Assembly (NCBI GenBank): GCA_051313645.2
Contig: JBNRSN020000010.1
Span: 9,858,001-9,922,000, forward strand
From: Centroscyllium fabricii
Lineage: Eukaryota
Direction of reading: 5' to 3'
DNA length: 64,000 bases
Shown here: piece by piece, positions 13,060 through 52,953 of the stretch
Layout: every line of letters starts with the position of its first letter
Position numbering within the stretch: position 1 is the stretch's first letter
Program-made: the position numbers and the translations under genes
Notes under the pieces: model-generated
Told to the model about the DNA's origin: nothing
The model's database searches: none
What the model saw: only the letters and a program-made list of their open reading frames with translations

Positions 13060-13911
13060 ATGGGTCGACCAGCTCTGCTGCTGATAAAAGAGATTAACTA
13101 CACGATTCTGGCAACTTTTTGTTCCCCAGTGAGCCACTGTATCTTGCCTGTTGTTAATCGGTGTTTACTGTCTCTATGTTCGTATCGCATGCTGGATAAT
13201 GTAACTGTTCTACAGATGTCAGCGTGTCCGCACTTTCCACATATCCCTTAATGCCACAACATTAGTAATGTTACGATGATCTGTGCAGCTCCAACACAAG
13301 GATTTTTCCGATTTCCAGATCGGCTTCTCACCCCGTGCAGTGTGAGTGCAGACGTAGCTCATTAAAATGTGTGGGTGGGTTTCCCACGTAATAGCTCCAA
13401 TACCAACCCTGTTCTCACACTGCTCCGTGCTGAAAATCACAGTGAATGGAGCAACATGCTCTCAGCAGGGATCTCCATATACATTTCAATCAGGCAGCGT
13501 TAAATCAATGCTCTCCTCTCTCTTTCTTACAGCGAAATTGGTCACAATTGAGATACTCACCCGAGGAAACTGCGGCCTTTCCAAAGGAATTTCTGTCTAC
13601 ATGGTTGCCATGGCAACAACTGATCTACTGGTCATGATTTCCAATGTAGTAGTGTATTATATTCTCAGTTATCAATTTCCATTGTAATTCCTGTCCCTTA
13701 CTCCCATGTGTATGTTCAATCTATACATGAAAGCCGTCAGCTTCGATTTGTCTGTTTGGTTCAACGTCTCCTTTACATTTGACCGATGTTTAATTATCTG
13801 TTTTCAGAAGTTTAAAGTACCTTATTCATAGAATCATAGAAATTTTACAGTGCGGATAAGGGCCATTCGGCCCATCCAGTCCGCACCGGCCCAGAAAAAC
13901 TCCTCACTGTA

Positions 13912-16802
13912 CTAACCCCAGTTGCCCGCACCTGGCCCATAACCCTGTATGTTATGGTCCTTCATGTGCTGGTCCAAGTATTTTTTAAATGTTGTGATGG
14001 TTCCTGCCTCCACCACCCTCACAGGCAGGGAGTTCCAGTCTTCCACCACCCTCTGGGTAAATAAATTTCTCCTTACCTCCCCCCTAAACCTCCCCCCCCT
14101 GATCTTCAATCTATGTCCCCTAGTGCTTGACTCTCCCACCAGGGGAAACAATGCACCTTTGTCTACCCTATCGTGTCCCCTCATGATCTTGTACACCTCA
14201 ATCATGTCACCCCTCCACCTTCTCTTCTCCAAGGCAAACAACCCCAGCCTGTCCAGCCTTTCCTCGTAGCACAGGTCCCCCAGACCAGGTATCATCCTGG
14301 TAAACCTTCTCTGCACCCTCTCCAGGGCAGCCACATCCTTCCTGTAGTGCGGTGACCAGAACTGCACACAGTACTCCAGCTGAGGTCTCACCAGTGTGTT
14401 ATACAAGTTTAACATTACCTCCCTACTTTTGTATACTATGCCCTGGTTAATAAAGGCGAGAATTCCGTATGCCTTCTTAACTACCTTGTTAACGTGTCCA
14501 GCAACCTTCAGGGAGCTGTGCACCTGTACCCCCAGGTCCCTCTGTTCCTCGGTCCTATTTAACGTTTTGTTGTTCATGGTATATTCCCTTACCCCATTTG
14601 GTCTACCGAATTGTATGACCTCGCATTTCTCTGGGTTGAACTCCATTTGCCATTTTTCTGCCCAATTAACCATTATATCTATATCCTCCTGAAGCCCCTT
14701 ACTATCCTCATCGTTGTTTACCACCCTTCCGATTTTCGTATCATCAGCGAATTTGCTGATCGTACCCCCTACTCCCATATCCAAATCGTTGATGTATACT
14801 AGAAACAGTAAGGGTCCCAAAACCGATCCTTGGGGGACGCCACTGGTTACTGGTTTCCAGTCACAGAAGCAGCCCTCTACCATTACCCTTTGTCTCCTAT
14901 CCCCCAGCCAATTTTCGATCCACTGTGCCAAGTTACCCTGTATCCCGTGCGCTCTAACCTTTGTTATTAGTCTCCTATGTGGGACTTTATCAAAAGCTTT
15001 GCTAAAGTCCATATACACTACGTCCACAGTACTCCCTTCATCCACCCTCTTTGTTACCTCCTCAAAGAATTCCAACAGATTGGTCAGGCACGACTTACCT
15101 TTGACGAAGCCATGCTGACTGTCTCTTATTAGACCTTGGTTGTCCAAATGCGAACTGATTTTATCCCTCAGAATTTTTTCCATTACTTTCCCCACTACAG
15201 ATGTAAGACTGATTGGTCTGTAGTTGCCCGGTTTGTCCCTACTACCCTTTTTAAACAGGGGTACTACATTAGCCGTTCTCCAGTCCTCAGGTACATCCCC
15301 TGACGCGAGAGAGGTCCTGAAGATTTGAGACAGGGGACCCGCAAGCTCCTCCCTGGCCTCGAACAGCAGCCTGGGGAACATTGCGTCCGGCCCTGGTGAT
15401 TTGTCCACCTTTAAGCCTCCCAAGATTTCTAGAACTTCTTCCCTTGTAATGGTAATATCCTCAATTACCCCCCCTACATTCTGTCCGATTTCGATGTCGG
15501 TATCGTCCCTCTCTCTTGTGAATACTGAAGAGAAGAATTCATTTAGTACCTCCCCCACCTCCTCGGGCTCGACGCACAGCTTTCCGCTATCGTCTTTAAT
15601 GGGCCCCACCCTTTCCCTCGTGATCCTTTTGTTTTTTATATAACTATAAAATGCCTTAGGGTTATCCTTGATTTTACCGGCCATTGTAATCTCATGACCT
15701 CTCTTGGCTTTTCTTATCTCCTTCTTTAAATCCCCCCTATATTTCTTATACTCCCCTAGTGCCTCCTCAGTTTTTAGCCGTTTATATTCATTAAAAGCCC
15801 CCCTTTTTTTCTTCATTAATTTACATATATCCCTAGACATCCAAGGTTCCCTTTGTTTGTCTCCCCCACCCTTAATTTTTGCAGGAACATTTTCCTCCTG
15901 TATCTTCCCGACTTCCCCTCTGAAGGCCTCCCACTGCTCTGATGCAGATCTTCCTCTGAGGAGATGGCCCCAATCTACTGCGGTTACATCGTTCCTAATT
16001 TTATTGAAATCCGCCTTCCCCCAGTTTAGTATTTTTACCCCTGGTCCATTTTTATCTTTCTCCATTACAATTTTGAAACTAACTGAATTGTGGTCGCTAT
16101 CCCCGAAGTGCTCCCCCACTGTTACCTCCTCTATCTGCCCGTCCTCGTTCCCAAGTATTAGGTCTAGTACCGCCCCCCCCCCTTGTAGGTGACCCAACAT
16201 ATTGTTTCAAAAAATTATCTTGGCTGCATTGTAAGAATGCTGAACCATCCGTGCCCCTCACACTTTGATTCTCCCAGTTGATATTGGGGAAATTAAAGTC
16301 CCCTAGTATTGTTACTTTATTATTTTCACTTATCTTCGTGATTTGTTCACATATCTTATCCTCTACCTCCCCTTTACTGTTTGGTGGTCTATAATATACT
16401 CCCAGTAAGGTGCCCCCCCCTTTTTTATTTTTTACCTCCACCCATAGTGCCTCGTTTGAGGATTCGTCCATTAGGTCGACCCGCCTAATGGCTGTGATTG
16501 AATCCTTAATCAGTATCGCTACCCCCCCCCCCCCTTTTACCCTCGTCCCTGTCCCGCCTGAAAATTCTATACCCCGGAATGTTTAGCTGCCATTCTTGCC
16601 CCTCTTTCAGCCACGTCTCCGTGATAGCTACTATATCATATTCCCATGAGTCAACCAATACCTTTAACTCATCCACTTTGTTAGTCAGGCTCCTTGCGTT
16701 AAAGTATATGCCTTTCATTCTCTGTCCTAAAACTACCTTGTTTTGCTGTCTAGTCTGCTTTCCTTTATTAGGTTGTGTTCCCCTATCCATTATACCTTCC
16801 AT
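13912..16802 (-). CDS. CR1 ORF2: APE endonuclease + reverse transcriptase (two +1 shifts in poly-G runs)
   Basis: EN motifs YFNARSL, AITETWL, GVYYRPP, LGDFNFP, SDHNSV; RT motifs YRPISLTS, DFSKAFDKVPH, GVPQGSVLGP, FADDTK. Split across ORFs 16506-16802, 16097-16471 and 13912-16200 only at homopolymers. Confidence 0.9.
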
Positions 16803-16825
16803 CTGGGTCCCCTCCCCCTGCCAAA

Positions 16826-17380
16826 TTAGTTTAAACCCACCCCAACCCGGCTAGCAAACCTTCCCGCAAGGATATTGGTCCCCTTCTGGTTCAGGTGCAA
16901 TCCGTCCTGCATGTAGAGGTTCCACCTTCCACAGAAGTAAGACCAATTGTCCAAAAAGCTGAAACCCTCCCTCCTACACCAATCTCTTAGCCACGAATTA
17001 AGCTGCTCTATCTTACGGTTCCTGTACTCATTAGCTCGTGGCACTGGGAGTAATCCAGAGATTACAACCTTTGGGGTCCTGCTTTTTAGCTTCTTACCTA
17101 GCTCCTTAAATTTTCTTTGCAGGACCTCGTCCCCCTGTTTTCCTATGTCGTTGGTGCCAATGTGGACCACAACTTCTACCTGGTCCCCTGCCCCCCTCAA
17201 GATGTCCTGCAGCCGCTCCGTGACATCCCGGACCCTGGCACCAGGGAGGCAAGTAACCATCCTGGTGTCACGTCCGCGGCCGCAGAACCGCCTCTCTGTG
17301 CTCCTTACAATTGAATCCCCTATTACTACTGCTGGCACACTAGTTTCCCTCCCTTTCTGGGCAGCCCCAGCACCCCCAGT
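16826..17380 (-). CDS. CR1 ORF1 C-terminal SGNH/GDSL esterase-like domain (5'-truncated)
   Basis: AVVIGDSIVR...CLPGARV...HIGTND...DGLHLN motifs (ORF 16826-17338). Confidence 0.88.
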   Translation of the reverse strand, partial: TGGAGAAQKGRETSVPAVVIGDSIVRSTERRFCGRGRDTRMVTCLPGARVRDVTERLQDILRGAGDQVEVVVHIGTNDIGKQGDEVLQRKFKELGKKLKSRTPKVVISGLLPVPRANEYRNRKIEQLNSWLRDWCRREGFSFLDNWSYFCGRWNLYMQDGLHLNQKGTNILAGRFASRVGVGLN

Positions 17381-20300
17381 GCACCGAGAGAACTGCGGAC
17401 GCGGTTATAACAGCATTCTCGGTCCTGATCTTTTTAAAGGAAATTCCCATATTGTTTGCATTTTAACCACAGCAAATAATTAACCAAGTGCCGTGGGGCT
17501 GCCGGAATTGTGTAGATTTTCTTTCCTCGCCTCACGGTGAAGCGTATCTCTGGTTTCACACCACATGGCGCGCTTGGCTTCCCTTCACCTTAATGGGCTT
17601 GTTTAATTGTTTGACGGTCAGACTTATACTGTTGGCCAGCAGATCGCGCAGGGCATTCCAGGGATAGAGCAGTGTGAACTTCTGCGATGCAGAGATGGAA
17701 AGCCGAAGGAAATTCATCATTTTCCTCTTCGCTATTTCGGGGAGTTATATATTGCTGTAGATGACAACCTCCGTGAATTTCTTAACTACCAGAATGACAA
17801 ATGTCAGTTATTACCGAGGCGACCGCACAATCCTAGACTATATCGGCACTGAAACCGCAGATCTGCTGAAGCTTTTGAGCGCCTGTGCGAACACATGTAT
17901 CTATGCAGCGACCCAGAGGAAAACCAGAGAAGAGCTGCAGAATGTTTTGAAATCTCCGTGGACACTCATTCTGAGATATGTTAAACATGAAAGAAAGCTG
18001 AACTAGAGCTTCGGTCGTGACATTTGAATTCCGTTATACCTCCTGATGTAGTTTAGAATGAGGCTTTCTCTTGTAACCGTTAAGTACGGATTGTTGTTTG
18101 TAAAATATAACAGGTACTGGTGGTACACGTTCAGGCACGCTAGTATATTTGGCGCCCTTTGTAGCACTTAACGACAACGAACACCGTAGGTTTCCGCAGT
18201 TCTTTGGCCGAGTGTCTCCTCCCAAACAAGTACATTCCCCCTTAAGAACTTGTAATGACCGTGATGAAGGGAAATGTAAAAGGCAAAGACAATAGTTGAT
18301 CAAGGAGTTTAATATCTGATCCTGCGCCGGCTGTAATCAGTTCTATCATATATTGGACGGATCAATCATCAGTTTTAGGGAAATATTTTATCGTTTACAA
18401 CTCTCGGTCCAATTACTTTTTTCTAACAGGTTTGGTGAAAATGTTACTTGGACTGATTGCCGCAGCAAGGGCCGCTTCACCCCTTCTCCTGGAAACAAGC
18501 AGCGTTGCCGCTGTCCCCTTCACAGTATTGGGATGTTTCACCACGATCTGAATGTTTACTGGAGTTTCCTCGTTTTACCATTTTTTCTGACGTCTCTAAG
18601 AAATATGGGAAGTCTGCCCAGCAATATTTAAAAAGTTGCTCCTTGCTGTTAATAAATGTATTATGTTGAATCTATGTGTTATTAACGTGTATCAGCGACC
18701 CTGTAACTTGGCAAATGAACATACGAATTAAGGATTTATAATCGGGTCATTTCAGGCAGGGATCAATAATCAGGGCTCTCAGATATTTACATGGCATAAT
18801 CCGCTGTATGTGTTGTTGCGCTAACAGAAGAATGTAATATGCCCATCGCTTTTGTCAACTGGTATTGACCGGGACCCCCAGTGGAAGGCGGTGTTTTGTG
18901 TGAGCCGGCCGCCATCGCTGGTGACCTTGGTGTGAGAGGGTTTCCCGGGGATACGTATTCAGATGAGGGTTCGATGCAATGTATTAGCATTTTGTTCGAC
19001 CTCCAATTTAAGTGCCCCGATTGAAAGTGGTTTCAAAATTAGTCTGCATTACACGTGTATTCAGAATGAAACATATCGAGGAGAAGCTGTCCCTCGAATT
19101 GGGTAAATCCATGGTAAATCCATTTTTCGCACTGCAGGATCTGCAAGAAAGTCAGCGGACTGTCTCTGAAAGCTTCCCCTGTTCAATTCAGTATCCCGGG
19201 TTCTACATATAAACAGACAGCTCTCTGTCCGCTTGATCTTCACAAATCTTCTGAAATTAATGGACGCCGCAGATGTTATTTGTTTTGTTGGTTATTATAT
19301 ATGCTAAACTGATTGGCTTGAATGCATTTTTTTCGCCCAGTCGGATTGTATTTTTATCGCCGTGCGTTCATTGTGCTGCATGCCTGTCCTTATCAGTCCG
19401 TTTAAGATTCGTGGAATCTGAATATTCTGAAAGTAGGGTGATTTTCAAAATCGGCCTGAACGAAAATCGGGCTGCAGTGCACTGGGCGCCAGAAAAACAC
19501 CCCGCCGACTTTTCCTTTTAGTTGTCTATAACAAAAATAAAATTGGGTGGCTGTAAAATACGTCGCTGCCAATCGACAGAATTCACTCAAGCTAAGTAAA
19601 AATCCCAGAGTGATTGACATGCTTCCTATATTCCGATTACTAATTTATAAAATTCTGACTAATTTGAAGTAGGCTCCAACTGTTTCAAGACTCTTTACTG
19701 TTAGACTCAGTTGGGTAGAGCAGCCTTTGGATTGCGTGTCCGTTTATAATTAGTTTATATGAAATCTAATCGCTCATAAATTCGTACACTCGGTAACAGC
19801 TGTAAATGTTTATTTAAACTATTTTGCATAATCGGGTCGAAATAAACTGTTTAATAATTGGGATATATCTTAGACGTAGTTCCCTATTGTGTATCTATAA
19901 GTCGGAGCTCGATGATCGCGTTGGATGTGTTTTTATCACAGTGCAGGGAATTCTGTTGTTGGAGAATGTTAGTGGAGGATTTCAGAGCTCCGTCTGAGTC
20001 TGGCGGTGGTCCTTACATCGGAATCTGCCTCTTGTTCCACATAATGCTAGAGGAATGTAAAGGGATCGTTAACTCAGCCGTAGTTAAATACATTTTATGT
20101 TATATTAATGGGGGGAAATGAATGCCCAGAGCTGATGTCCACACGTCTAATATTCCCGAAAAAGAACAGCACGGATAAATATTAGTGATGTATTTATTAA
20201 CCTTGAAAACGTCAAATAAAACAGCCGAACATACAAACTGCAAGGCTTTAAAAATGCAGGAGCTCCAGAAAAAAATTGGTGACACGTCACTGAATCAGCT

Positions 20301-22065: not shown

Positions 22066-22089
22066 AATACTTTGCATGTGCCTTCATTA

Positions 22090-25374: not shown

Positions 25375-25787
25375 CCATCCCAACGCGCTTTACATTCAAT
25401 GACGGACTTGTATAAAGTGCAGTTACTGTTGTAATGTAGGAAGCGTGAGCGCAAATTTGAGCACAGACAATCTCCCACACACAGCAATGAGATAAAGACC
25501 AGATGATCAGTTTTTGTGATGTTGGTCGATCAATGAATAGTGTCAGAACACTGTGGAAAAAAACATGGTCTTCTTTGAAGTAGTGCTGAGTGATATTTTA
25601 TGTTCTTCTGACAGATTAGCCTTGGCCTCGGTTTGATGTTCCGTCTGAACGACGGCACATCTAACAGTGCAGCACACACTCAGTACATAACTGAGGTGTC
25701 AGCATTGATTTTGTGTTATAGTATGTGGAGCGGAGCTTTCACCCACTGTCATTTGATGCAGAGGCGAGAGTGTAACCACAGAGCCAC
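25375..25787 (-). mobile_element. DeuSINE-like (SacSINE1-type) tRNA-derived SINE
   Basis: Reverse-complement tRNA-like head (...gcagaggcgagagtgtaaccacagagcca) and Deu-like core (ggcctcggtttgatgttccgtctgaacgacggcacatctaacagtgcagcac); truncated paralog at 45870-46170. Family name from recall. Confidence 0.65.
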
Positions 25788-26180
25788 TGCTGAACACCTT
25801 ATAAAAATGCTAACTTCAAATGGGAATTGGATATATGTTTGCAAAAGCAGAGTTGCGGGCAAACAGCAGCGGTGATGGACTAATTATATTTCTAGTACAA
25901 AGAGCCGAGAGAGGCCTCCAAGGTCGCATGGATTCCTTATGGCCTTCAATTCTATTTTCCTAGGCCGCCAGAATTCCCCGTGACTTTAAGCTAAAAATGA
26001 AAATAGAATAACATCTCAGGATGAGATTCCATCATTTTCTAATAATCCACCCGTATACGTGTGGAGATGCGGCAGTGGTGCAGGTCCAGGAGTTCCTAAC
26101 GCGAGATTAGACAAGCAGGAAGTTGTTAAGAAGGAGCTAGTGGGAGCGAAACTAAAATATAATAATCCTCTTAAAGGAGA

Positions 26181-26477
26181 AATGCAAGAAGTCACAGAAC
26201 ACCAGATTATAGTCCAACGGTTTTATTTTAAATCACAAGCTTTCGGAGCGCTGCTCCTTCGTCAAGGTGAAAGAGAGAGACTGACTTAAAAGATCACATA
26301 TCGGAGGAGGGAATCCGATATTTGATCTTTTAAGTCAGTCTCTCTCTTTCACCTTGACGAAGGAGCAGCGCTCCGAAAGCTTGTGATTTAAAATAAAACC
26401 GTTGGACTATAATCTGGTGTTGTGTGACTTCTTGCATTTGTCCACCCCAGTCCAACACCGGCACCTCCCCATTATGA
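26181..26477. mobile_element. Penelope-like palindromic insertion with hammerhead ribozyme motifs
   Basis: 126-bp inverted arms (26180-26305 / 26314-26439, 2 mismatches, 8-nt loop); 13-bp TSD CTCTTAAAGGAGA (26168-26180, 26478-26490); empty paralogous site near 46553-46565. Confidence 0.85.
26348..26387 (+). ncRNA. Minimal type I hammerhead ribozyme motif (Penelope-associated); mirror copy on the minus strand at 26232-26271
   Basis: TCAC-C-TTGACGA-A-GGAGC-AGC-GCTCC-GAAA-GC-TT-GTGA: stem I UCAC/GUGA, core (C/U)UGAnGA...GAAA, stem II GGAGC/GCUCC, palindromic AGCU in place of stem III. Confidence 0.65.
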
Positions 26478-27343
26478 CTCTTAAAGGAGATTAGGAGCCA
26501 TCGTGGGCCCACTTTCATATATCGGTAGCATTATTAATGATTAAGAAAAAGCGTTTTTTTAATTACTCAACAAATCTGGCAGGTGGATCCTATGGACCAG
26601 CAAAGGCCGCTTGGAATACGAAATAAATAAAGTATGTTCACATGTGAGTCATTGAATGCTTGTATGAGAGACAGCGATTAAGGCATTATTTTGTTAGTTA
26701 CAGTGATCAAACTCATAAAAGGAGATTCTGGAATCTAGGAACGCAGACCCTGCAGGAAATAGGAATGGGACTTGACAGGAGGAACGCTTCACTGACACTG
26801 CCGCAATTTCCCTCAATTAGAGAGTATTCTTGAGGTTCCGGCACTGCCTGAAATAATCCTAGTGTTTAAAATAAGGCCAGGAGATATCCAGTTGTTGAGC
26901 ACTTGGGGGAGAAGCAATGCAAAATGGGATGATATGGGCTAAGTGGCGATGTCTATTCTTTAGCTAACCTGATCGAATTTCTGAAACAAATCATTGGCCT
27001 GTAGGGCTGGGGAAATTCAGCTGGAATGACCCAGACTGATTTTAATGGAGCACAGGACAAGGGTCCACATGAAGAAACGGTGAGAAATTACGTGATGAGT
27101 AGGAGATCCGGCACTGTACAGAGCGCTAATTACAAAAGTAATGCAGGTTATTGACAAATGGAAAGCAGTAATGGATGGGTGACTGTTGAACATCTGGGAT
27201 CTTCCTTGGTATCAGTTTATTTATAATATTTTGTTCAATACAAGCTAAATTGGCCTGATGGTATCTTAGACACAAGAACAGTGAACATCATACCAGCACA
27301 TTTAACACTATAGGACCATTGAAATGTACGTGTGGAGAGTATG

Positions 27344-30145
27344 TGTCATGCCACGTCCTGCTGCCTAAGTTATGTTTTCATCATTACTGTCATTCATTCA
27401 TTGCCTGTTTTATTTTTTATTACCCACCTCACACCTCATTTCAGAAACTTGCTTCCGGCCCTTGTGTTTTTCCAGCCCTGATCTGTTTCACCTGTTCCTC
27501 ATTAACTCCTCAGTGTATTTAGGCTGTGTCTTTCCCTCTCTCTGTTGCCAGTTCGTCTTCGTACCTCCGTGTCTAACGTTCCAGCCTTTTTATGGGGCAT
27601 TGATCTCCTGGTTTCTCGGATCCCGGCCTTGCTTGCTTTGACCTCGTCTTTGCCTTCTCCCTTTTGGATTTGATTGCCTGGATTTGCATGGATTACCTGT
27701 GTAGCGATTATTGCCTGGATTTAGACTGATTACGTGTATACCGATTGTTGCAAGTAAAGACTGTGTGAATTACTTATATCCTGTTTCCGAGTCGTGCTCC
27801 TGAGTCCTCTTGCCTATCCATTACACCAGTCGTTACAGTAAGAAATGGCAGCAAGTCGATGACACAGTCATAGTGTCGGTGCGGATGTCGAGACAAATCC
27901 CGAGCTTTGTTGAAGACCACATTGAGGTCCAGGTAACAGGAAGGAACTCCGGAGAGATCCGGGAAATCGGAGTCGAACGATGCTGCAGGAGGTGAGGAGG
28001 CAGGCGAGTGAGAGACCGCAGGCAGCCCGAAACAACAGGGAGTGAATTGTCAACGGATGATGGATGCCCCGTGTCAGAGACGGACGACAAACAGGTACGT
28101 GCACAGTTCTTGTCCCAACCCGTTATCTGCCCTGTGGACCAGTCCATGTGAGGGTTATGCTTGATGAGCCAGGGAAAACCCAGAACTTGAGGATGTAACT
28201 GGGAGTCGAGAAGATGAAAACTCAGTGATTCCGTGTGATGCTTGTAGATGATGAGTCGTATGGATTGAGTACGGTGGGTCACTCTATACAGCAGCCGGAC
28301 ATCAAAAGTGTTAGCCTCCAATTGCTTGGGAGGAGGAATTAATTCGTGTCCAAGTCTTTCAGCTAATCTCCAATCCATAAAAATCTCATCAGCCCAAGAG
28401 TTCACAAACACTAGATGACAGAGGGTTTGTGATGGAGTGATCAGTCGTGCCTGAGTGAGGTGTCGAGAGTAAAAAACAGAGGAAGTAGTGTGGCTCACCA
28501 GCGTCCTCCACTTCCCTGAAGAGCCTTGTCTTTTATTCGGGCATCCAGATATGAAGTGGCCCAATTGAGAGCAGTAAATTCATCTGCCCTCCCGCAGCCG
28601 GCACTGTGACTCCTCTGGAGTGAGTGTGGCTCTCCCCAACTTCATGGTCTCCTCCACAGTAGCAGAGGGCGATGATGAGGCAGCTGCCAGGATGAATGGA
28701 GCAGGAGGATCCCAGGAAGAGGAGCGATTGGTCGCAGAGTGCCCGCTTTGCAGGGGCGAAAAACCCACAGTTCGTCTCCCAGTTCTGGAGGGCTTCATTT
28801 TCTCTAATCGGCGTCAACGTCAGCCTCTCCTCTGGATACCATCCCCAGTCGAATGGCCAGATGGAGCAGCTTAACCAAGAACTGGAGATTGGTCTACGCT
28901 GTTGCGTGTCCCAGAATCCGGCCACCTGGATTAAACATCTGATATGGGTAGAGTACGCACATAACACCTTACCCAGTTCTGCTACTGGTCTCTCTCCTTT
29001 TCAATGTGCCTATGGCTACCAGCCGCCACTGTTCCCTGACCTGGAGACGGAAGCCAGTGTCCCTTCTGCTCAGGCTTTTGTTCGTTGGTGACACCGCATC
29101 TGCAATGAGGCCTATCAGGTGCTCCTCAGGAGTTCGGCCCGTTACAAGAGGGTGGCTGACCGACGACGAACCCCCGCTCCCACATACCGACCCAGGCAGA
29201 GAGTTTGGCTGTCTACTCGGGACCTTCCCCTGCGTTTAGAATGCCGCAAGTTGGCTCTCCGGTTTGTGGGTCCTTTTCTGGTCGCCAGAGTCGTCAATTC
29301 GGCGGCTGTATGCCTCAGACTTCCCAGATCCTTGAGGGTTCACCACACGTTCCATGTGGCGCCGGTCAAGCCTGTGACGGAGAGTTCCTTGGTTCCCGCC
29401 TCCAAGCCTCCTCTGCCCCCCAGTTCGTTGCTGGATGTCTGGTCTACACGGTCAAGCGTCTCTTGACAGTTTGTCGTCGGGGCCGTGTACGCCAGTACCT
29501 GGTCGATTGGGAGGGGTACGGTCCGGAAGAGAGGACGTGGGTGTCCAACATCAACATTTTAGATCCTAAACTCTTCCGGGACTTCCATCATCTACATTAT
29601 TATCAGCCTGGGACGTCAGTTGCCGTCGCTAGAGGGGGGGTGGGGTTGTACTGTCATGTCCCGTCCTGATTCCAAAGTAATGTTTTCATCATTGTTGTCA
29701 TTCATTCATTGCCTGTTGTATTTGGTATAATCCACCTCACCCCTCATTTCAGATACTTGCTTCAGGCCCTTGTGAGGTTCCAGCGCTGATCTGGTTCACC
29801 TGTTCCTCATTACCACCTTAGTGTATTTAGGCTGTGTGTTTCCCTCTCTCTGTTGCCAGTTCGTCTTCGCACCCCCGTGTCTAACGTTCCAGCCTTTTTA
29901 TTGTGCACTGATCTACTGGTTTCTCGGATCCCTGCCTTGATTGTTTTGACCTAGCCTTTGACTTCACCCTTTTTGGATTTGATTGCCTGGATTTGGACTG
30001 ATTACCTGTGCACCGATTATTGCCTGGATTTGGACTGATTACCTGTATAACGAATGTTGCAAGTAAAGACTGTTGATTTACTTCTATCCTGTTTCCGTGT
30101 CGTGCTCTTGAGTCCACTTCCCTTTCCATTATGCCAGTCATTACA
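27344..30145 (+). mobile_element. Internally deleted and rearranged chromovirus-type (sushi-like) Gypsy LTR retrotransposon
   Basis: 494-bp LTRs 27344-27837 and 29652-30145 (TG...CA); 5-bp TSD GTATG; PPT before the 3' LTR; integrase PQFVSQFW...YHPQSNGQME and chromodomain [16 protein letters not shown] on plus; gag end and protease on minus (~27846-28755); empty site near 47414. Confidence 0.93.
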
Positions 30146-30199
30146 GTATGATATTTAACCTGTTCTATTTGTAATGGATTCTCTGAGACAGCAATCAAA

Positions 30200-30580
30200 A
30201 CCTATCGGCATTGTTCTCCTCTCTCCATAGAGAATGATTTTCTCTTTTTTAGAAGTATTCACATAACTTTGCCTTTAATATGTTCTGAGGCAAGACATTC
30301 CATGGTCTATCAAACCTTTGCATAAAGACATTTCTTGTAACCGCTCTGCTCATTCCCTTTGTGATCATTTCAAGGCGATCATCCTTTATTACTAGCTCAC
30401 TTACTAGATGGAATAATCTCTCCCTCTTCACTCTGAGGAAACTATAGACAATGTTTAGAACCTCTAATAAATATCCTCCTAGATTTCGCTGCTCCAGTAT
30501 AAATAGTTGCAATAACTTGACCCTCATCATTAGTATAGTTCTGATCCATGGCACAATCCAGGTGTATCTACACTGCCCGC
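30200..30580 (-). mobile_element. Old CR1 3' fragment (paralog ~47470-47850)
   Basis: ORF 30249-30554 LEQRNLGGYLLEVLNI...RNVFMQRFDRPWNVLP is a decayed CR1 ORF2 C-terminus. Confidence 0.6.
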
Positions 30581-30611
30581 TCTCCTTGGATATAATGGTG
30601 TTTTCTCAATA

Positions 30612-32890: not shown

Positions 32891-32990
32891 TATCACATTA
32901 CCAGAAAGAAGGAGGCTCAACGGTGAAAAAGGTGTTTTCTGTGGAGATTCAGTAACGAGGAACCTTTAGTTTAATTGATTCTTTTAATTC

Positions 32991-35679: not shown

Positions 35680-38600
35680 TAAACTCACACTAAATGTGAC
35701 TGTGCCACTACTTTCGCAGTATTTCCCCTACACTTGCATTAGATGCAACCGTGTCTCTCCTCGCCCGGTGCTGCCCTGACAGTTGCAGCAGATGTGACCA
35801 CGTCGCTCTTGTGCAGTGCTACGCATACACATACAGGAAATCTGACCGCGACCCTCCTGTACCAGTGATACCACTACACTTGCAAGAGATGTGACTGTAC
35901 CACAATTGCCATAGTGCTACGCATCTACTGACGCTAGATATGACAATGACCCTCCTGTCGCATTGTTAGTCCTACACTTGCACTAGATGGAACTATGCCT
36001 CTCCTTACCCTGTGTTACCGCTACTCTTAAACTAGATCTGAGCGGAATCTTGCAGTTCCAGTGCGACCCCAACATTTACACTAGATGCGACCGATGCTCC
36101 CCAGTCCAGAAACAGCCCAGATACAGATAGGAAATGTGAAAGTGCCCCTCATATCCCTGTGTTACCCCTATATTGACACAAGTTGTAACCGTTTCTCTCA
36201 TTTCCTTTTGTTATCTACTATTACACTAGATGTGTCTGTGCCCCTACTGTCCCAGTGTCACGCATACACGTGCAATAGTTGTGACCTTGTAACTTCTGTT
36301 CCAGCTACCCTACACGGAAATTAAATGCGATGGTACCTCTCCTCTTTCAGCGATTGCCCAATACTGATACTAAATGTGCCCATGCCCCTCCTGTCCCCGT
36401 GCTACCTCTACTATTACAATAGATGTTCCTGCGCCCCTCGTGTCCCAGTGTTACGCAGACACTCGTAGTAGATGTGATCTTGACCCTCCTGGCCCAGTTT
36501 CCGCTACACTGAAACTATATGTGATTGTACCACTCCAGTGCCAGCACTCCCTGACAACTGATACTACATGTGTCCATGGCCCTCCTGTCCCAGTGCTACC
36601 CATGCACTTAGATTCCATGTGACAGTGACCTCCTGCCTCTCTGTTAGTTCTATAATATAAGGATATGTGTGTATGCCCCTCCTATCTCAGCTTACCCTCA
36701 ACAATTACACTACAATTTGACCGTGCCATTCCTGTCCCTGTTTTACCCCTACATTTTCACGAGAAGTGTCCGTGCCCGTACGGTTCAAGCGCTAGCCCTA
36801 CACTGACACAAGGTGTGAGCGTGGCCCTCCTGTCCCAGTGTTACTCCTACGATTGCACTAGATGTGACTGAGGCCCTTCAGTTTCAGTGTTACCTCTACA
36901 CTGACACTAGATGTGAGGCTGCCCATGCTGCCCTAATTTTAACTTTAAACATACACTAGATGTGACCATGAGCCTCCTGTCGCAGGGCTAAATCTACAGT
37001 TACATTAGATGTGATGTTGACCCTCCTGTCTCAGCTACGCTTACAGTGAAACTAGCTGTGTCTGTATCGCTACTGTGAAGCGCTTCCGCTAAACTGATAA
37101 TTAATGTGTCCGTGCCCCTCCTGTCCCAGTGCTTACCCCACCCTTACACTAGATGTTAACATGCCCCTCCTTTTGCTGATTTAGCCATACACTGACAACA
37201 GAACTGAGAGTGTCACTCGTGTTCCATTGTTACCCCCACAATTACTCTATATGTGACCATACCCCTCCTTTTGCTGCTTTAGCCATACACTGACAACAAA
37301 CGCGAGAGTGTCACTCATGTCCAAATGTTACCCCCACACTTTCACTAGAGGTGACTGTGCCCCTCCTGTACCAGTGTTATCCCTACACAGAAAGTTGATG
37401 AGGCCGTGTACCCACCCCCGCCCCCTCTTTCTGTTTCACCTACACTGACACTGGTTGGGATTGTGTACCTCCTGTCGCAGTGGTGCACTACACTGACAGT
37501 AGAGTTTCTAAGCCCATCCTGTTCCAGTGCTACGGCTGCACATACACTAATGAAATGTAGTGGTCACACAGAGTCAGGAGGCATATGCCTCCTGCCTCTG
37601 TGTGACCCCTACATTTCCTTAGCTCTGACCGTGTCCCTATTGTCCCAGTGGCACCCCTACACTTACACGAAATGTGATCACGGCTGTCCTGCCCCAGTGC
37701 TATTCCTACATTTGCGCTAGATGTGACCAAGGCCCTAAAATCACAGAGCTGCCATTCACAGACACTAACTATGACAGTGCCACAGCTGGCCCTGTGTTAA
37801 CCCTACAATGACACTACATGTGACTGTGTCTCTCCTGTCCCAGATTTACCCCTACGTTTACACTAGACGTGATCTTGCCCCTCCAGCCCATATGCTACTC
37901 CGAAACGTATACTAGATGTCATGGTACCACTCCTCTCCCAGCGATTCCCCTATTCTGACACTAGATGATACCGTGCCCCTCATTTTCACACTGCAGCCCC
38001 TACACGTACACAATATGTGATCGTACCCCTCCTTTAACAGTGTTAGCCTTGCTCTTAAACAAAATCTGACCGAGCCCCTTCTGTCATAATGTTACACATA
38101 CACGCACACTTGATTTGACCTTGCCCCTCCTGTCCCAGTGTTAACTCTGCACTTACATTAGATGTGACCATGGCTCTCCTGTCCCAGTGTACCCCTACAC
38201 CTTCTTTAGATGTGAGCATAACCCTGCAGTTCTCGTGTTGATACTACACTCACAGAAGGTGTGTGAGTGCCCCCCTTTCCCAGGTTTCCCTCGACTCTGT
38301 ATCTACATGTGACGGTACCCCTCCTGTCACAGTGTTATCCGTATACTGTCATTATATATGTCCGTCCCCCTCCTTTCACATTGCTACCCCTAAACTTTCA
38401 ATAGATGTGATCGTGCCCCTCCTGTCCAAGAGTATACCCTACACTTACACTAGCTCTGACCGTGCCCCCTGTCCCAGAGTTGCCACTACATGTACAGCAG
38501 ATTAAACCGTACCCACAAGTCCCATTGTTACGATTAGAATGACTCCAGATGTGACCGTGTCCCTCCTGTCCCAGATTTACCTATTCACTGACACTAGTTG

Positions 38601-38825
38601 TGACTATGCCTCTCTGGTACCAGTGCTAGCCCTACACTGAAGCTGGATGTGACAGTTCCCTTCCTGTCCCGGTGCTACACCATAACTTACACTAGATGTG
38701 ACCATGCCCCGCTGGCACCAGTGTCAGTCCTACACTGACACTAGATGTGACAATTCCCTTCCTCTCCCAGTGTTAGCCCATAACTACCACTAGATGTGAC
38801 TGTGCCCCTCCTGTGCCATTGTGAC
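35680..38825 (+). repeat. 49-bp satellite array (consensus ~CACTAGATGTGACCGTGCCCCTCCTGTCCCAGTGTTACCCCTACACTGA)
   Basis: ACTAGATGTG at 38691, 38740, 38789 (period 49); diverged monomers throughout. Confidence 0.95.
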
Positions 38826-38829
38826 TGTG

Positions 38830-45868: not shown

Positions 45869-48423
45869 TGGAGTAAACAGACCAGATGATCTATTTTTGT
45901 GATGTTGATCAAGGAATGCATATGGGCAGGACTCTGTGGAAAATGACCATGGTCTTCTTTGAAGTAGTGCTGTGTGATATTTTATGTTCTTCTGACAGAG
46001 CAGCCGTGGCCTCGGTTTGACGACCCATCCGAAAGACGGCACATCCAACAGTGCATCACAAAATCAGTACAGCACTGAGGTGTCAGCATAGATTTTGTGT
46101 TATAGTAGGTGGAGCGGAGCTTTCATCCACTGCCATTTGATGCAGATGCCAGAGTGCCACCACAGAGCCACTGCTTAAATCCTTATTAAAATAGTAGCTT
46201 CAAGTGGGAATTGGATATATGTTTCCAAAAGCGATGTTGTTGGCCAACAGCAGCGGGTCTGGACTAATTATATTCCTAGTTCAAAGAGACGAGAGAGGCC
46301 CCGAAGGTCGGCAAAATTCCTTATGGGTCATTAATTGTATATTTATACGCCTCCTTAACTGCCCGAGACCTGAAGCCAATAAGGAAAATAGAATAACATC
46401 TCAGGAGGCGATTACATAATTTTCCAATAATCCACCCGTATGCGTGTGGAGCTCCGGCAGTGTTGCAGATCCAGGAGATCCGAACGCTTGATTAGACAAG
46501 CAGGAAGTTGTTAAGAAGCAGCTGGTGGGAGGGAAACTAAAATATATTTATCCACTTAAAAGAGAATAGGAGGCATCGTGGGCCAACGTTAATATGTCAG
46601 TTGCATTATTAGTGATTAAGAAAAAGCTTTTTTTTAAATTACTCAACAAATATGGCAGGTGGATCCTATGACCAGCAAAGGCAGATTGGAATATGAAATA
46701 AATAAAGTAGTTCACATGTGACTCATTGAATGCTTGTATGAGAGACAGCGATCAAGGCATTATTTTGAAAGTTACAGTGATCAAACTCATAAAAAGAGAT
46801 TCTTGAATCCAGAGATGCAGACCCTGCAAGATGAAGGAATGGCGATTGGCTGGACGAACGCTTCACTGACACTGCCGCAATTTTCCTCAATTTGAAAAGA
46901 TTCTTGAGGTTCCGGCATTGCCTGAAATAATCCCAGTGTTTAAAATAAGGCCAGAAGATATCCAATTGTTGAGCTCTTTTGAGAGAAGCAATGAAAAATG
47001 GGATGCTATGGGCTAAGGGGCGATTTTTAATCTTTAACTAACCTGCTCGAATTTCTGAAGCAAATCAGTGGCCTGTAGGGCTGGGGAAATTCAGCTGCAA
47101 TGACCCTAGTCGGATTTTAATGGAGCACAGAACAAGGGTCCACATGAACAAACGGTGAGAAATTATGGGATGAGTGGGAGATCTGGCACTGTACAGAGCG
47201 CTAATTGCAAAACCAATGCAGGTTATCGACAAATGGGAAGCGGTAAGGGATGGGTGACTGTTGGACATCTGTGATCCTCCTTGGTATCAGTTTATTTATA
47301 ATATTTTGTTCAAGACAAGCTCAATGGGGCTGATGGTATCTTACACACAAGAACAGTGAAAATCAGACCGGCACATGCAACACTATAGGAACATGGAAAT
47401 GTACTGGGGGTGAGTATGTTATTTGAGCAATTCTATTTCTACTGGATTCTTTGAGACAGCATTGAAAACCTATCCGCATTGTCCTCCTCTCTCCATAGAA
47501 AATGATTTTCTCTTTTTTAGAAATATGCACCTAACTTTGCCTTAGATATCATCTGAGGCATGGCATTCCATGGTCTATCAAACCTTTGCTTTAGGAGATT
47601 TCTTATAACCGCTCTGCTCAGTCTTTTTGTGTCCATTTTAAGGCGATCGTCCATTATTACTAGCTTCCTTACTAGATGGAATAATCTCTCGCTCTTCACT
47701 CTGAAGAAAGTACAGACCATTTTTAGAACCTATAATAAATATCCACTTAGCTTTCGCTGCTCCAGTGTAAATAGTCCCAATACCTCGACCCTCATCATTA
47801 GTATAGTTCTGATCAATGGCACAATCCACGTGTATCTACACTGCACGCTCTCCTTTGATTTAATTTTATTTCCTCAATGATTGATCGAAACTGTACCATT
47901 TGTTGTAATGCTGGCCTTAATAGCATCGTGTAACGATTCACCATATTTTTTTTGTGATCAATGTCCCTGTCTATAAAACAGTAATTGAAGTTGATCTGCT
48001 CGTGAACTTTCTAGCAATTGAGTACTTGGTTGCCTATCAATCGCTCTTCATCCACACTCTTCAGCTCCTTCGCATTGAGATTCTGCTCCCATTCCTTGGC
48101 GTTTCTCGCACAATCAGCCGATATCACAGAGGAAAATATTCTAACTCATTCAAAGTTGCTGGTATTTTTCAATTATTATTTGGAAAATTGTGTAACAGCA
48201 TAATAAAACGATAATTACCAAAGATTATTTCTGAAAGTCTGCAAGTGTCCAGCCAAACACAGAATACTGGATATTATTTATGATTTATCTAAATTTATGG
48301 CAATGTGTTTAACAGATCACTTGCAACAATTGTAATAACAAATATATTTACCAAATATCATTCCGTATACCATCTTTTACACTTTTGGGGGTGGAATAGT
48401 TGTTGCAGAATATCAATAATAAT

Positions 48424-49182
48424 GGCCCAGAAATTGAATTGGAGGCTTGCCGCGAGTGTAAGCATCCAAAGACCACTAACGGAGTGCACATGCCTTTTTG
48501 AATTTTCCTTACCTGAAATCCGGATTCGCTGGCCTGCTGAAAGGCCGGCGTGCTGCGCTTGGGCAAATGAAAGGCGAACATAGTGGAAAACTTCCCGCAG
48601 GATCACGTGGTCCGCTGGAGCCAGTCACAGCAAATAATACTACATTCATAACTTTGACAGACAGATCTGTCAACGTTATGAAATACTAGAGCCCCAAAAA
48701 CATATTAAATATTAAAATTTGTTTTTATAAAATACAACAATTTTAATCTTACTATCACTAACATAAATTAGCTACTTTAAACAAAAAATAAACATCTTAA
48801 AAATATATTTTTAGTTTTTAAATGGGCTACCAAACGACATAAATGTTTAAATTATTTAAAAATAACAAACCTGTCAAAAAATATTTCAATTGAATAAAAT
48901 AGACACTCACCAGATGACAAGTTGTCATTGCGGCTGATATTTTCATCCGTAACTTTCCCGATACTTACCCTGATTAAAAAACCTGTAAAAAAAACTGTGA
49001 TTTCACTGCGCACCTCCTGGTGTGCAGGCCAACGCGCTCCGGTACCTGACCCCTCCAGACCCGGCATTTGAAGTACTGGTTCTCTGCGCATGCTCGGTCC
49101 ACGCACTGAACCAAGGCGTCTGAGGGCCGCACGCGTGAGTACACCGTCCGTACTCGCGCGTTGCGGCCCTAATTTCTGGGCC
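48424..49182. mobile_element. Harbinger-type MITE, family B (copy B)
   Basis: Perfect 12-bp TIRs GGCCCAGAAATT / AATTTCTGGGCC; TSD AAT at 48421-48423 and 49183-49185. Confidence 0.85.
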
Positions 49183-49705
49183 AATTCTCATGATATCTTT
49201 ATCTGCAGCACTAAACACGAGCAGAGTCCATCTTTGTACAGGTTGAGAGACACCAGTCAGCGCACAAGCGTGATTTTAAGTCAGTATCTGGGACACACGT
49301 TTTGAAAGGTCACATCGATGAGCCGAGATATGACTCTTTCCTGCATTGGAAAACTGAAGAAGTGATAAGCGCACGCTCCATTTGTCAACGTGGAATGGTG
49401 CCGATAGAGAAGCAGACGCCTGCAAAATTCACACCAAATACCAGGAAATTACCAATATCCGTTATCGCAAAACCTTTATTGATGATTTGAAAGTGACGCG
49501 CCCGATTGCAGTATCTGCCCACATGTCCACCACTGAATTACATCATTGTTATCATTGAGCTTTGAACTTGAAATGTGCTAAATTTGCAACAATAGGGTAT
49601 ATTTACTGAATCGCATAAGCATGAAAAATTATACATTGGAGACTCCAAATGCACGCTGCAAAATGGATAAAAAGTTCACACGAGTTCTCTCCCATTTTTG
49701 ACATT

Positions 49706-50501
49706 GGGCCCTGTTTTCCTGGGGACTCCTTATCGCACGCACCAACATTGCACAGAAGTGTGGACATCAATTTCCTCCCCGTTCCTCCCCGTTCCTGCGC
49801 TGCGTGGCAGTCCAGCCACGCTAGGTGCGCAGTGTAAGCCCCGCCCATAGATCCCAAATTTAAATAAAAAACGCCCCCAGATCCATAATTTAAATAAACA
49901 CATCCCGATTCGGACCTTTGTGAGAGCAGGGAAGTGCGGACTGCACTGAAAGATTGGCGGGGAGCAGCGCGGGGGCACAGCAGCTTCTCAGAAGAGGAAA
50001 CGGTAGGTAAGTCTGCCATTTTTTCCTCTTAGATTTTTTATAGATAGAGAGTTAAACATTTCAGAAATTTAACTTTAAAAATTAGCGATTTGAAACAGGT
50101 AAATTAACTTAAAATCGGATTTGTAACATTTTTTAAAAAACTTTAACTTAAAAATTTAATGCTCCGATCTGGACACATTACTCCCAAAAACTGTAAAAAA
50201 TTAAAATTAAAGTTACAAAATTAACTTACCTGCTTCAATAACTAAATCTTCTCCCTCTTACTACTGTTTTTTTCGTGGGCAGCTTGTGAGCCTGTTGCAC
50301 ACGGAATCACTCTCTAAAAATCACCCGTTCTGACAGGAAATCGTCAGTGCAAGGTCTTCCTGTGTTGGGACCTGACGGGCCTTGCCCATCAGCACAGGAA
50401 ATTACCGTTCGTTGGCATCCCCCGTGTTGCACACCCACGAGGCATTTCTGAACCCCCTTTGTGGGTGTGCAGCTCCTCTGGAGCACAGGAAAACAGGGCC
50501 C
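49706..50501. mobile_element. Harbinger-type MITE, family A, copy 2 (inverted relative to 21231-22065)
   Basis: TIRs GGGCCCTGTTTTCCTG / CAGGAAAACAGGGCCC; TSD ATT (49703-49705, 50502-50504); single ATT at the empty paralogous site 32717-32719. Confidence 0.92.
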
Positions 50502-50504
50502 ATT

Positions 50505-50699
50505 ATGTGGAGGTGCCGGAGTTGGACTGGGGTGGCCAAAATGTAAGAAGTCACACAACACCAGGTTATAGTCCAACAGTTTTATTTGAAATCACAAGCT
50601 TTCGGAGCGTTGCTGACGAAGGAGCAGAGCTCCGAAATTTTGTGATGTCAAATAAAACTGTTGGAATGTAACCTGGTGTTGTGTGACTTCTTACATTTT
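50505..50699. mobile_element. Penelope-like inverted-repeat insertion with a partial hammerhead motif (copy B)
   Basis: Arms ~50538-50608 / ~50628-50699; CTGACGAAGGAGCAGAGCTCCGAAA core; probable TSD ATTTTT(G/A)ACATT. Confidence 0.78.
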
Positions 50700-50797
50700 T
50701 AACATTACCAGTAAGAAGGACCCTCAACGGTGAAAAAGGTGTTTTCTGTGGAGATTTAGTAACGAGGAATCTTTAGTTGGATTGATTACTTTAATTC

Positions 50798-51702
50798 TCA
50801 TTTTCTGCCAATTCCCAATATTAATGTCCAGGTGTATTTCACCACCTTCTTCAGCTCTTCTCTGAATTTCCTCTGGGTGGCGAAATAAATACACGGGTTT
50901 TGAAAGCAGCTCAAAAACTTCAACATTGTTCCAGTTTCAGTGGCGATATATCCAGGATCTGTGCGGTCACCTCGGTAATAGGTGTTGTTTACCAGTTTGG
51001 TAGCTACAACACTCACAGCAGTTGTCAGCCACAACAATATAAAACTGCCCGATATAGTGAACAGTAAAATGATGGATTTAATTCGGTTTACCATCTCTGG
51101 ATCGCTGTGATTTTTACTCCTCTGACCCCGGAGTCCCCTGCGGGCTCTGCTGGCTTCTAAAATACGTCTGATTGTCAAATAATTAAACAAAGAAATTAAC
51201 GTAAAAGGAAGCCAAACGCCCCAGGCGCTGTGAAACCAAATGTAGGCTACACCTGGAGAAGAGGAAAAAAAAGCCACACTGTTCCGGCAACCCCACTGCA
51301 CCTTGTTAATGATTTGTTGCGCTTCAAATGCAAACACAACGGGGACGCCCCTTAACATGGTTATGACCGTGAAAGCTGTTAAAACCGTGGCCGCATTTCT
51401 CTCGGTGCAATACTTTGTATTAAATTTCTTGCAGCAGATAATAACACATCGGTCAAATGTGAAGGCGACGGTGAACCAAACAGACAAATCGAGGTTGACT
51501 ACAGTCAAATATAGAATGAACTTACATACCGGGGTGTGGTACAGGAATGAAAGTGGAAAGCGATAATTGACAATATGATACAATATTACATTGATGATCA
51601 ATACAAATAGATCTGCCGTTGCCATGGCCACCATGTAGACAGAGATACACTTGGAAAATCCGCAGTTTCCTCGGAAGATAATCACCATTGTCACCAAGTT
51701 CG
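50798..51702 (-). CDS. Probable G-protein coupled receptor 139-like (class A GPCR), exon 2 of intact copy B
   Basis: Acceptor ctctctttcttacag, then open to TGA at 50798: ANLVTMVIIFRGNCG, YMVAMATADL (TM2), CK (TM3 Cys), FTFDRC (DRY-like), WGC (ECL2 Cys), WLPFTLI (TM5), FILLWLT (TM6), NPCIY (NPxxY) and KFREEL (helix 8). Confidence 0.93.
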
Positions 51703-51731
51703 CTGTAAGAAAGAGAGAGGAGAGAAATAAT

Positions 51732-52487
51732 GGTCCAAACATTAGCCTTGGTGTCTTCCTACAAGTGCACGGCTCCAAGGTACACTTACGCTGCACTTCT
51801 GCCTTTTTACAAGTATGGGATGTGACATTGCGAGTGGTGCAGCTGCTGTAAGCTACAGGCGAATTGCTGGTGCAACTGAACGGCATAATTAGTGCTAGAT
51901 ATCGCACGGGTCTTTTGATCCGCAGGGAGCCAATCAATGGAAGCAATTCTTCCTTCATAACTTACACGGAGTTATCAGTGTAATTTATGAATAGGAAGAG
52001 CTTCAAAAACACATCTAAGCGCAAAATTAACCTAAAAAACACCACATTTGTTCACAATATTCTAACAAACATAAATTACACTTTTAAAGAAAAAATAAAC
52101 ATTTAGAAACACAATTTAAAGTTTTTAACTGGCCTAAAACAATACTTACCTCTCTTTAAAGTTTTTTTTTTTTTTTTAAACTTGTTAAAATAACACTTAC
52201 ATTCTATAAAATTAAGTCTTTCCTGCTAAGAACGGATGGTTACGGAGATATTTTTAGCTCTATACTTCAATACTACCCCGATAAAAAACTCAAAAAACAT
52301 GGGAAGTCCAGTACGCAACTCATGGTGCGCAGACCAATGCGATCCAGTTCGCAGCAGCTCGCGATCCACCACAGGACCTATCGGAATTGCAGGAAGCAGC
52401 AGGAAACGGCTGCACCCTGCAATTCGGACCTGGGTGCGTGAGCACACGGATCGAAAGCCTCTTGCGCTCATACGGATTTCGGACTCA
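51732..52487. mobile_element. Harbinger-type MITE in the GPCR intron (copy B)
   Basis: Paralog of 33924-34683; ends GGTCCAAACATT ... ATTTCGGACTC flanked by AAT/ATT. Confidence 0.65.
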
Positions 52488-52883
52488 TTGTTCCAGCGTC
52501 TGATGATGTCGATATGGAGATAGCTGTTGAGAGCATTATACTCCAGTCAGTGAGATTATCAAAACGGAGCAGTGTGAGAACAAGATTACTTTTGGAGACC
52601 TTACCCTGGAAAAACAACCACACAATGAGCTGGAGCAGTGCTCAGTCAGTAAGTGGTGACAAGACTGTCGAAATCCTCCTATAAACGTGGGTTGGAGCTT
52701 CAAAGTACAGAGTAATCTCAGTAAGGTTATCGGATTAAGCGGACTCACGATTCAGGATTTATTTCTCATCACTACCGTATGTTTAATGCTGCCATCTCGA
52801 GAACTCCGTACCTTAACAAAGATGCTCTATGTACATGGATACAGATAACTCCGACTAAAAACAAACAGGTTATCGTCACTCAC

Positions 52884-52953
52884 CGGGTACAGCAAAGACC
52901 GCGAGAATCGGGTAGTAAATCTCTTTGATCAGCAGAGTAGCTGGTCTCCCCAT
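52884..52953 (-). CDS. GPR139-like GPCR, exon 1 of intact copy B (MGRPATLLIKEIYYPILAVFAVP)
   Basis: ATG at 52953; 70 nt ending CCC G|GTGAGT; the phase-1 donor joins exon 2 to give GCG AAC (A-N). Total 975 nt = 324 aa + stop. Homologous exon present in both other copies. Confidence 0.9.

Follow-up and report, generated by a model that had tools for sequence, protein, structure and literature searches.

The closest described systems for the receptors discussed here are GPR139 and GPR142, whose genes have two coding exons each, the zebrafish orthologue of GPR139 being 70% identical to the human protein (PMC7318219). GPR139 binds Trp and Phe at a site made up of E3x32, F3x33, H5x43, W6x48, R6x51 and N7x38 (PMC7318219, PMC8807744). 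Protostome receptors for W/Y/F-amide peptides form the sister branch of this pair, and ligands of the wider branch are aromatic amino acids and peptides of the W/Y/F-amide type (PMC8557429), while two GPR139/142-related orphans, GPR210A and GPR210B, were reported for fishes and the coelacanth by a survey whose accessible part includes no sharks (Rinne et al. 2019, PMC6504862). Cartilaginous fishes have been described as poor in G protein-coupled receptors (GPCRs) and olfactory receptors (PMC8455134, PMC10116579), sharks having 8-43 V2R genes and, for each of the three remaining olfactory families, 2-13 (PMC10116579). Here we analyse a stretch of 64,000 nucleotides from the shark Centroscyllium fabricii (assembly GCA_051313645.2, contig JBNRSN020000010.1, positions 9,858,001 to 9,922,000 of the forward strand), hereafter the window, which carries three related receptor loci, copies A, B and C. 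The finding reaches beyond the window, as the three copies belong to a heavily expanded and apparently undescribed GPCR family of elasmobranchs.

Repertoires of chemoreceptors and of immune sensors are known for gene clusters, lineage-specific blooms and pseudogenes, and their receptors for short N-termini and variable pockets. In the family studied here, an ancient gene of the GPR139/142 branch, conserved in amphibians and a sturgeon, has been multiplied as a cassette of satellite, promoter and two exons, both in tandem and in inverted orientation, and copies have been lost by stops, frameshifts and the insertion of a long interspersed nuclear element (LINE). The signalling core is near-fixed (D2.50, DR3.50, W6.48, N7.49, Y7.53, E7.36 and the cysteines of transmembrane helix (TM) 3 and of the second extracellular loop, ECL2), and positions 3.32, 3.33, 5.39, 5.42, 5.46, 6.51, 6.52, 7.39 and 7.43 of the pocket evolve fast. 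The family may serve as a chemosensory panel that detects small external ligands, a reading to which we give a probability of roughly 0.45; that it constitutes some form of diversified sensor repertoire is likely.

Three copies of a two-exon receptor cassette

Six-frame translation and self-comparison of the window revealed class A GPCR genes in three copies and no more, all of them with two exons. Copy C (50798..52953, minus strand) is intact and encodes 324 aa with a Pfam 7tm_1 match (E 1.6e-19); its exon 1 (52953-52884, 70 nt) and exon 2 (51702-50798) are separated by a phase 1 intron of 1181 nt, with a GT donor after codon 23 and a canonical AG, located directly before Asn1.50 in TM1. Copy B (32991..35150, minus strand) keeps the same layout (exon 1 35150-35081, intron of 1184 nt, exon 2 33896-32991) and a coding sequence (CDS) 93% identical to that of C, and is a pseudogene, in which codon 75 reads TAA and a 1-nt insertion within a homopolymer run shifts the frame near CDS nt 348. 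Copy A, a pseudogene on the plus strand, is split in two: its 5' part (13060..13825) comprises exon 1 from 13060, an intron of ~400 nt and the beginning of exon 2 from 13533, and its 3' part (17380..17990) holds the rest of exon 2. The donor of A is short of one G, stops are found at codons 75, 150, 217 and 248 (the last three in the 3' part), and exon 2 is interrupted by a LINE on the minus strand (approximately 13826..17379, with both junctions located). This element conserves an esterase-type piece of its first open reading frame (Lipase_GDSL_2), an endonuclease (Exo_endo_phos_2), a reverse transcriptase (RVT_1) and a 3' tail of short repeats, and we take it to be of the CR1 type from its domain order and tail. 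Copies B and C lie in tandem, 17.8 kb apart, within a duplicated block, whereas A is inverted, with an exon 2 identity of 75-80%, and is older than the B/C duplicates.

Most of this architecture had already been advanced by a sequence-only reading of the window, which described three paralogues (one intact, two dead), a single phase-1 intron in TM1, tandem plus inverted duplication and a very short N-terminus. All four points held up, and the last one turned out to be a family trait, since Asn1.50 falls at residue 25 not only in C but also in 81 of 120 homologues. The DRC motif that it saw in place of DRY is indeed present in all three copies of the window, but it is no hallmark of the family, where it occurs in 6% of 121 aligned rows against 93% with DRF. 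An in-frame stop lies 32 codons 5' of the ATG, though a further exon may exist upstream. Candidate extra gene copies at 31629-32055 and 48608-49043 were rejected, as their match is limited to a 430-nt intron repeat. Repeats of this kind, of 430-600 nt, occupy the introns of C and B (51916-52345 and 34058-34543), with none in the shorter intron of A, and two more copies with 66% identity are found downstream of B and C (31578-32058 and 48418-49043).

The block with copy B (25496..37232) matches that with copy C (45879..63999) in five pieces at 45879-53481 and one at 62438-63999, with 84-89% identity, the C block holding ~9 kb more of satellite. A degenerate tandem array precedes each copy: ~26 units of 48 bp at 11312..12575, ending 485 nt before the ATG of A; ~65 units of 49 bp at 35675..38822, ending 525 nt before that of B; and at least 213 units of 49 bp at 53673..63999, running beyond the window edge and ending 720 nt before that of C. 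The array of A has the same gene-relative orientation as those of B and C and is homologous to both (scores of 134 and 144, against 26-34 for the controls, namely the opposite strand and 10 shuffles each). Since the arrays are homologous and ~500 nt of upstream DNA can also be aligned across all three copies, the duplicated unit comprises array, promoter and gene. The array may contribute to regulation or duplication; it could belong to the mechanism by which the cassette is duplicated or a gene is chosen. A TAATGA motif occurs in the promoters of B and C only.

Comparison of the coding sequences gave a synonymous distance (dS) of 0.130 and a non-synonymous distance (dN) of 0.052 between B and C, with a dN/dS of 0.40 (bootstrap 0.24-0.71), alongside noncoding distances of 0.137 in the intron and 0.11-0.12 in the flanks. 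For A and C, dS was 0.56 and dN/dS 0.42 (bootstrap 0.30-0.57), so that both intervals stay below 1, as expected under coding constraint. With A as outgroup, which left 6 changes unresolved, the branch of B shows 14 single changes that are non-synonymous and 4 that are synonymous, in line with the neutral ratio (3.4), and that of C shows 15 to 11, or a dN/dS of ~0.4. Moreover, C carries the derived residues L39F, K118N, E228V and R231I at sites conserved among its 12 nearest homologues. These branch ratios and derived residues indicate that B is dead and that C is constrained, but only moderately. A separate observation is that A and B have in common the TAA at codon 75 (~13686 in A, 33743 in B) and Leu 79, though B is far nearer to C. 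The chance that the single stop of B coincides with one of the four of A is ~0.03 (4 of 127 possible changes), and the common stop could come from an old gene conversion tract or from repeated mutation.

An elasmobranch family next to GPR139 and GPR142

Among the 758 database matches (E<=0.001), the best 120 are without exception shark or ray proteins, from 11 species. Clustering at 90% identity yielded 32 clusters in Pristiophorus, 26 in Heterodontus, 24 in Heptranchias and 11 in Scyliorhinus canicula, counts that are lower bounds, include a few clusters of isoforms and can be set beside the 8-43 V2R genes reported for sharks. A skate member is also present. Many copies with an open frame are found across the 12 named shark and batoid species; in a library at 50% identity, E<=1e-30 is reached by 93 clusters and E<=1e-10 by 141, many of them fragments. 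In a FastTree phylogeny of 215 rows (C, the 120 matches, 72 of the 148 other representatives, namely those matching over >=255 aa, and 22 added relatives), clades restricted to one species or genus comprise 17, 9 and 10 rows, and C sits among the Pristiophorus rows, a position suggestive of a squalomorph shark origin. The nearest neighbour comes from the same species for 79 of the 120 matches, against 20.6 by chance. Altogether, we find the clustered paralogues, lineage-specific blooms and pseudogenes typical of birth-and-death evolution, and the earlier suggestion of a lineage-expanded family of this kind is supported by the purely elasmobranch best matches, the species-only clades and the two dead copies out of three in the window.

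The affinity of the family depends on the breadth of the query. Alone, copy C retrieves human GPR139 at E=0.2 and rank 39 of 61 in a single-sequence PDB search, with 20% identity by structural alignment. Profiles of the family, on the other hand, place human GPR139 (PDB 7VUG) first among solved structures (E 8.8e-17, 64 vs 52 bits), and a wider profile that includes the related clades X and Y raises the match to E 2.2e-34 (122 vs 90 bits), with chemokine receptors at no more than 75 bits. A leukotriene-receptor affinity seen in the single-sequence search was set aside, as the profiles rank GPR139 first. This agrees with the earlier proposal of a position in the GPR139/142 branch without true orthology: copy C, with its 20%, is far from the 70% identity of the zebrafish orthologue, so the shark family does not consist of GPR139 orthologues.

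Two clades of conserved relatives accompany the family. Clade X, annotated as 'probable GPR139', contains one cluster in each of 20 amphibians plus a sturgeon (Pleurodeles P0224, Xenopus P0389 and Acipenser P0405, for instance) and is ~30% identical to C. Clade Y comprises genes of teleosts, coelacanth, amphibians, turtles and two sharks. A 52-row IQ-TREE analysis joined the family and clade X with supports of 100/100, the family alone received 94/83 and clade Y 100/99; both this tree and the FastTree one were built from rows other than true GPR139 or GPR142 sequences, and the basal family rows here could include chimaera or bony-fish genes. A grouping of the family with clade Y was rejected by the approximately unbiased test (p-AU 0.0005, a test chosen after the tree had been seen), and sharks carry separate clade Y genes. 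Besides GPR139 itself, at least three conserved vertebrate GPR139-like genes are hidden under one automatic name, namely clade X, clade Y and a third (P0224 with P0386-P0405; P0240, P0235 and P0343; P0267). Mammals do not appear among the matches listed for clades X and Y. Clade Y also keeps Arg6.51 and an aromatic residue at 3.33, and so resembles the GPR139 site more closely than the shark family does.

Membership in class A is clear from 7tm_1 matches in 32 of 32 members and from the presence of D2.50, DR3.50, W6.48 and NxxxY. A model of exon 2 built from 148 sequences reached a mean predicted local distance difference test (pLDDT) score of 88 and shows the end of TM1, six further helices, helix 8 and an ECL2 hairpin; an earlier model from 32 sequences was poor (pLDDT 58), and its fold search was not used. 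The better model superimposes on class A peptide receptors with Z scores of 24-26 and a root-mean-square deviation of ~3 Å over ~260 residues, many peptide receptors falling within ~2 Z units and GPR139 at rank 38 (Z 24.6) and outside the top 50 Foldseek rows. As the model matches many peptide receptors alike, the fold does not discriminate the subfamily. Conservation across 121 family rows is extreme for C3.25 (100%), the ECL2 cysteine (98%), R3.50 (100%), W6.48 (99%), T6.50 (98%), E7.36 (98%), N7.49 (99%) and Y7.53 (100%), with F3.51 at 93% (Cys in 6%), and 29 columns are invariant in the alignment of 32 sequences. Generic numbers were set here from motif anchors and the GPR139 positions were read by eye, the TM4 numbering being uncertain and clade X having a gap at 3.37. 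Under this scheme, copy C keeps two of the six residues of the Trp/Phe site (the His and the Trp), E3x32, F3x33, R6x51 and N7x38 being replaced by T, V, T and T, and positions 3.32, 3.33, 6.51 and 7.39 are among the most variable of the family. In addition, GPR139 lacks the TM3 and ECL2 cysteines at the aligned places, and the family lacks the TM6 proline of GPR139.

Searches of the literature found no account of this elasmobranch expansion, although coverage of subscription journals was thin and its absence from print is therefore unproven. In the accessible text and supplement of the whale shark genome study, GPR139 is absent and GPR142 appears once, as an orthogroup label (PMC8455134), and the string '139' is absent from the main text of a catshark study (PMC11979771).

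Diversified pockets and a candidate sensory role

Site rates were expressed relative to the helix mean in 121 rows of the family (65% mean identity), 93 rows of clade Y with >=300 aa (65%) and 21 rows of clade X (77%). For 29 pocket-facing positions, a list taken from general knowledge and fixed before the rates were computed, the pocket of the family evolves faster than the other helix sites (1.35 vs 0.94, p=0.003), whereas that of the relatives evolves more slowly (0.64 vs 1.06, p=0.015, in clade Y; 0.50 vs 1.09, p=0.002, in clade X). The shifts between the family and clades Y and X also exceed those of random sites in the extracellular half (p=0.0001 and 0.0016). The excess of pocket variability over the conserved relatives is seen with the 29-site set and relative to clade Y, and is weaker for a set of 12 published GPR139 contacts against clade X. 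Independent pairs of same-species sisters differ more in the pocket in 22 of 31 cases (0.202 vs 0.127, p=1e-4), nine cross-species pairs show no pocket excess (0.169 vs 0.181), and in clade Y the pocket differs more in only 5 of 26 pairs (0.046 vs 0.094). Such a pattern is that of ligand diversification after duplication, unlike plain relaxation, and adds a line of evidence beyond those of the sequence-only reading. It was observed at the protein level and fits chemosensory and immune use alike.

We propose that these receptors would act as sensors of small, chemically related ligands outside the animal's control, most likely external chemical cues such as short peptides or amino-acid derivatives, which the nose, mouth, skin or gut would read out through their chemosensory cells. 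With only ~7 residues before TM1, ligand binding would take place inside the helix bundle beneath the ECL2 hairpin, where the fixed acidic residue would anchor a common ligand group and the variable positions would tune each copy, the signal then passing via a G protein. Both the tissue and the ligand of the family are inferred. In a snail, a gene bearing the same automatic name is highly expressed in a chemosensory organ (PMC10638732), which lends the chemosensory reading weak support.

Several observations weigh against a chemosensory panel. The catshark nose is already accounted for by V2Rs in microvillous neurons with Go and TRPC2 (PMC10116579), and in the accessible text no GPCR figures among the 50 most specific genes of a catshark brain-plus-olfactory library (PMC11979771). 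Four motifs of olfactory receptors are missing from all 120 homologues, and the O/E site, an olfactory-receptor promoter motif, was found in none of the three promoters, a scan that is uninformative. With the 12 GPR139 contacts, the pocket excess of the family is not significant (1.46 vs 0.97, p=0.07), and its shift is clear against clade Y (p=0.0013) but not against clade X under a stricter null (p=0.13); likewise, the same-species and cross-species sets of pairs (31 vs 9) do not differ significantly (p=0.12). Copy C itself may be drifting, and fast pockets fit immune sensors equally well.

That last point leads to the explanation in which the receptors, carried by leukocytes, mast-like cells or epithelia, serve as immune or barrier sensors for microbial or damage peptides, as formyl-peptide receptors or MRGPRs do. 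Under it, the same birth-and-death and fast-pocket pattern would be expected, and a precedent for such a shift exists in catshark olfactory receptor genes that moved to spleen and stomach (PMC11979771). The best single-sequence PDB matches, leukotriene and formyl-peptide receptors, point in the same direction with weak scores, but these vanish with profiles, and the preference for GPR139 (122 bits) over chemokine receptors (no more than 75 bits) excludes descent from chemoattractant receptors; we consider an immune role unlikely on balance. In a different account, copy number would drift: a cassette rich in repeats and flanked by satellite would often be duplicated, decay would claim most of the copies, and the one or few in use would respond to an endogenous peptide or metabolite, as the conserved amphibian gene would. 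Two dead copies out of three, the neutral branch of B (14:4), the loss of some conserved residues in C and the homologous satellite beside each copy, which could drive unequal exchange, are all in line with it, and the database proteins are predictions that may include unexpressed genes. Relaxation, however, should raise the rate of all sites equally, yet the pocket is faster while 29 columns stay invariant, and the 12 named species retain numerous copies with an open frame, the 50%-identity library having 93 clusters at E<=1e-30; we regard drift as quite improbable.

Very improbable, finally, is the possibility that the family consists of multiplied GPR139/GPR142 orthologues sensing L-Trp and L-Phe via the same site. 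GPR139 as the best PDB match of the family profiles, the two coding exons on both sides and the retention of H5x43 and W6x48 in C speak for it; the E value of 0.2 and 20% identity between C and GPR139, against 70% between zebrafish and human, the replacement in C of four of the six site residues, which vary across the family, the TM3 and ECL2 cysteines absent from GPR139 and the loss of the TM6 proline all speak against it. Trp/Phe sensing by analogy with GPR139 is not supported, with only two of six binding-site residues kept. To return to the chemosensory panel, its most far-reaching version, in which an overlooked elasmobranch chemoreceptor family derived from the GPR139 / W-Y-F-amide branch would match or exceed the V2R repertoire in size, is somewhat unlikely; if true, it would overturn the view that the keen chemical sense of sharks is based on very few receptors and give vertebrate chemoreceptors one more independent origin. 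A chemosensory role would alter how smell or taste in sharks is understood. An immune role would instead reveal innate sensors of a new class in the oldest lineage of jawed vertebrates. The amphibian sister gene offers a single-copy handle on the ancestral ligand.

Neighbouring repeats and comparison with known systems

The remainder of the window is rich in mobile elements. A Ty3/gypsy-type long terminal repeat (LTR) retrotransposon (5002-9562, minus strand) has end repeats 94% identical and recognisable reverse transcriptase, RNase H and integrase in broken frames. An LTR element remnant at 27344-30154, present in the B block only, is bounded by 503-nt end repeats 88% identical; their divergence is close to that between the B and C blocks, so the element was probably inserted soon after the duplication. 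A palindromic element at 26176-26443 has 130-nt arms that are 98% complementary, and related pieces lie immediately downstream of C and B (50538-50699 and 32717-32881); they look like short inverted-repeat mobile elements. A dispersed element accounts for an inverted repeat pair of ~800 nt with 87% identity (21227-22022 and 49718-50505). A scan of the window against Rfam gave 0 matches.

With respect to described receptors, the shark family resembles GPR139 and GPR142 in its class A fold, two coding exons, the TM1 stretch YY..L...G.PAN.LT, W6.48 and an acid at 7.36; the intron of human GPR139 may also lie just before Asn1.50. It departs from GPR139 in being multicopy, with a 7-residue N-terminus, the TM3 and ECL2 cysteines and T for P at 6.50. 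Clade X, its sister, has in common with it the DPEM..RR.SI..L stretch before TM6 and differs in having one cluster per species and an almost fixed pocket, while clade Y resembles it in the short N-terminus and both cysteines. GPR210A and GPR210B are likewise GPR139/142-related orphans. Further away, protostome receptors for MIP/sex peptide, FMRFamide, myosuppressin and proctolin have 25-28% identity and fall outside the vertebrate clades in the tree, and resemblance to Srw/Srx-like receptors consists of Atlas neighbours with Srw/Srx labels and weak Srx matches in 7 of 32 members.

The repertoires of OR, TAAR, V1R/ORA, V2R, T2R, FPR and MRGPR receptors belong to another branch of class A, and the 7tm_4 domain was found in none of the 32 members. 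Nonetheless, the shark family resembles the OR/TAAR/V1R/V2R/T2R and the FPR/MRGPR repertoires in its clusters, blooms, pseudogenes, short N-terminus and variable pocket. The type of system is thus a known one, and what is new, as far as we found, is the GPR139/142 branch as its vertebrate source.

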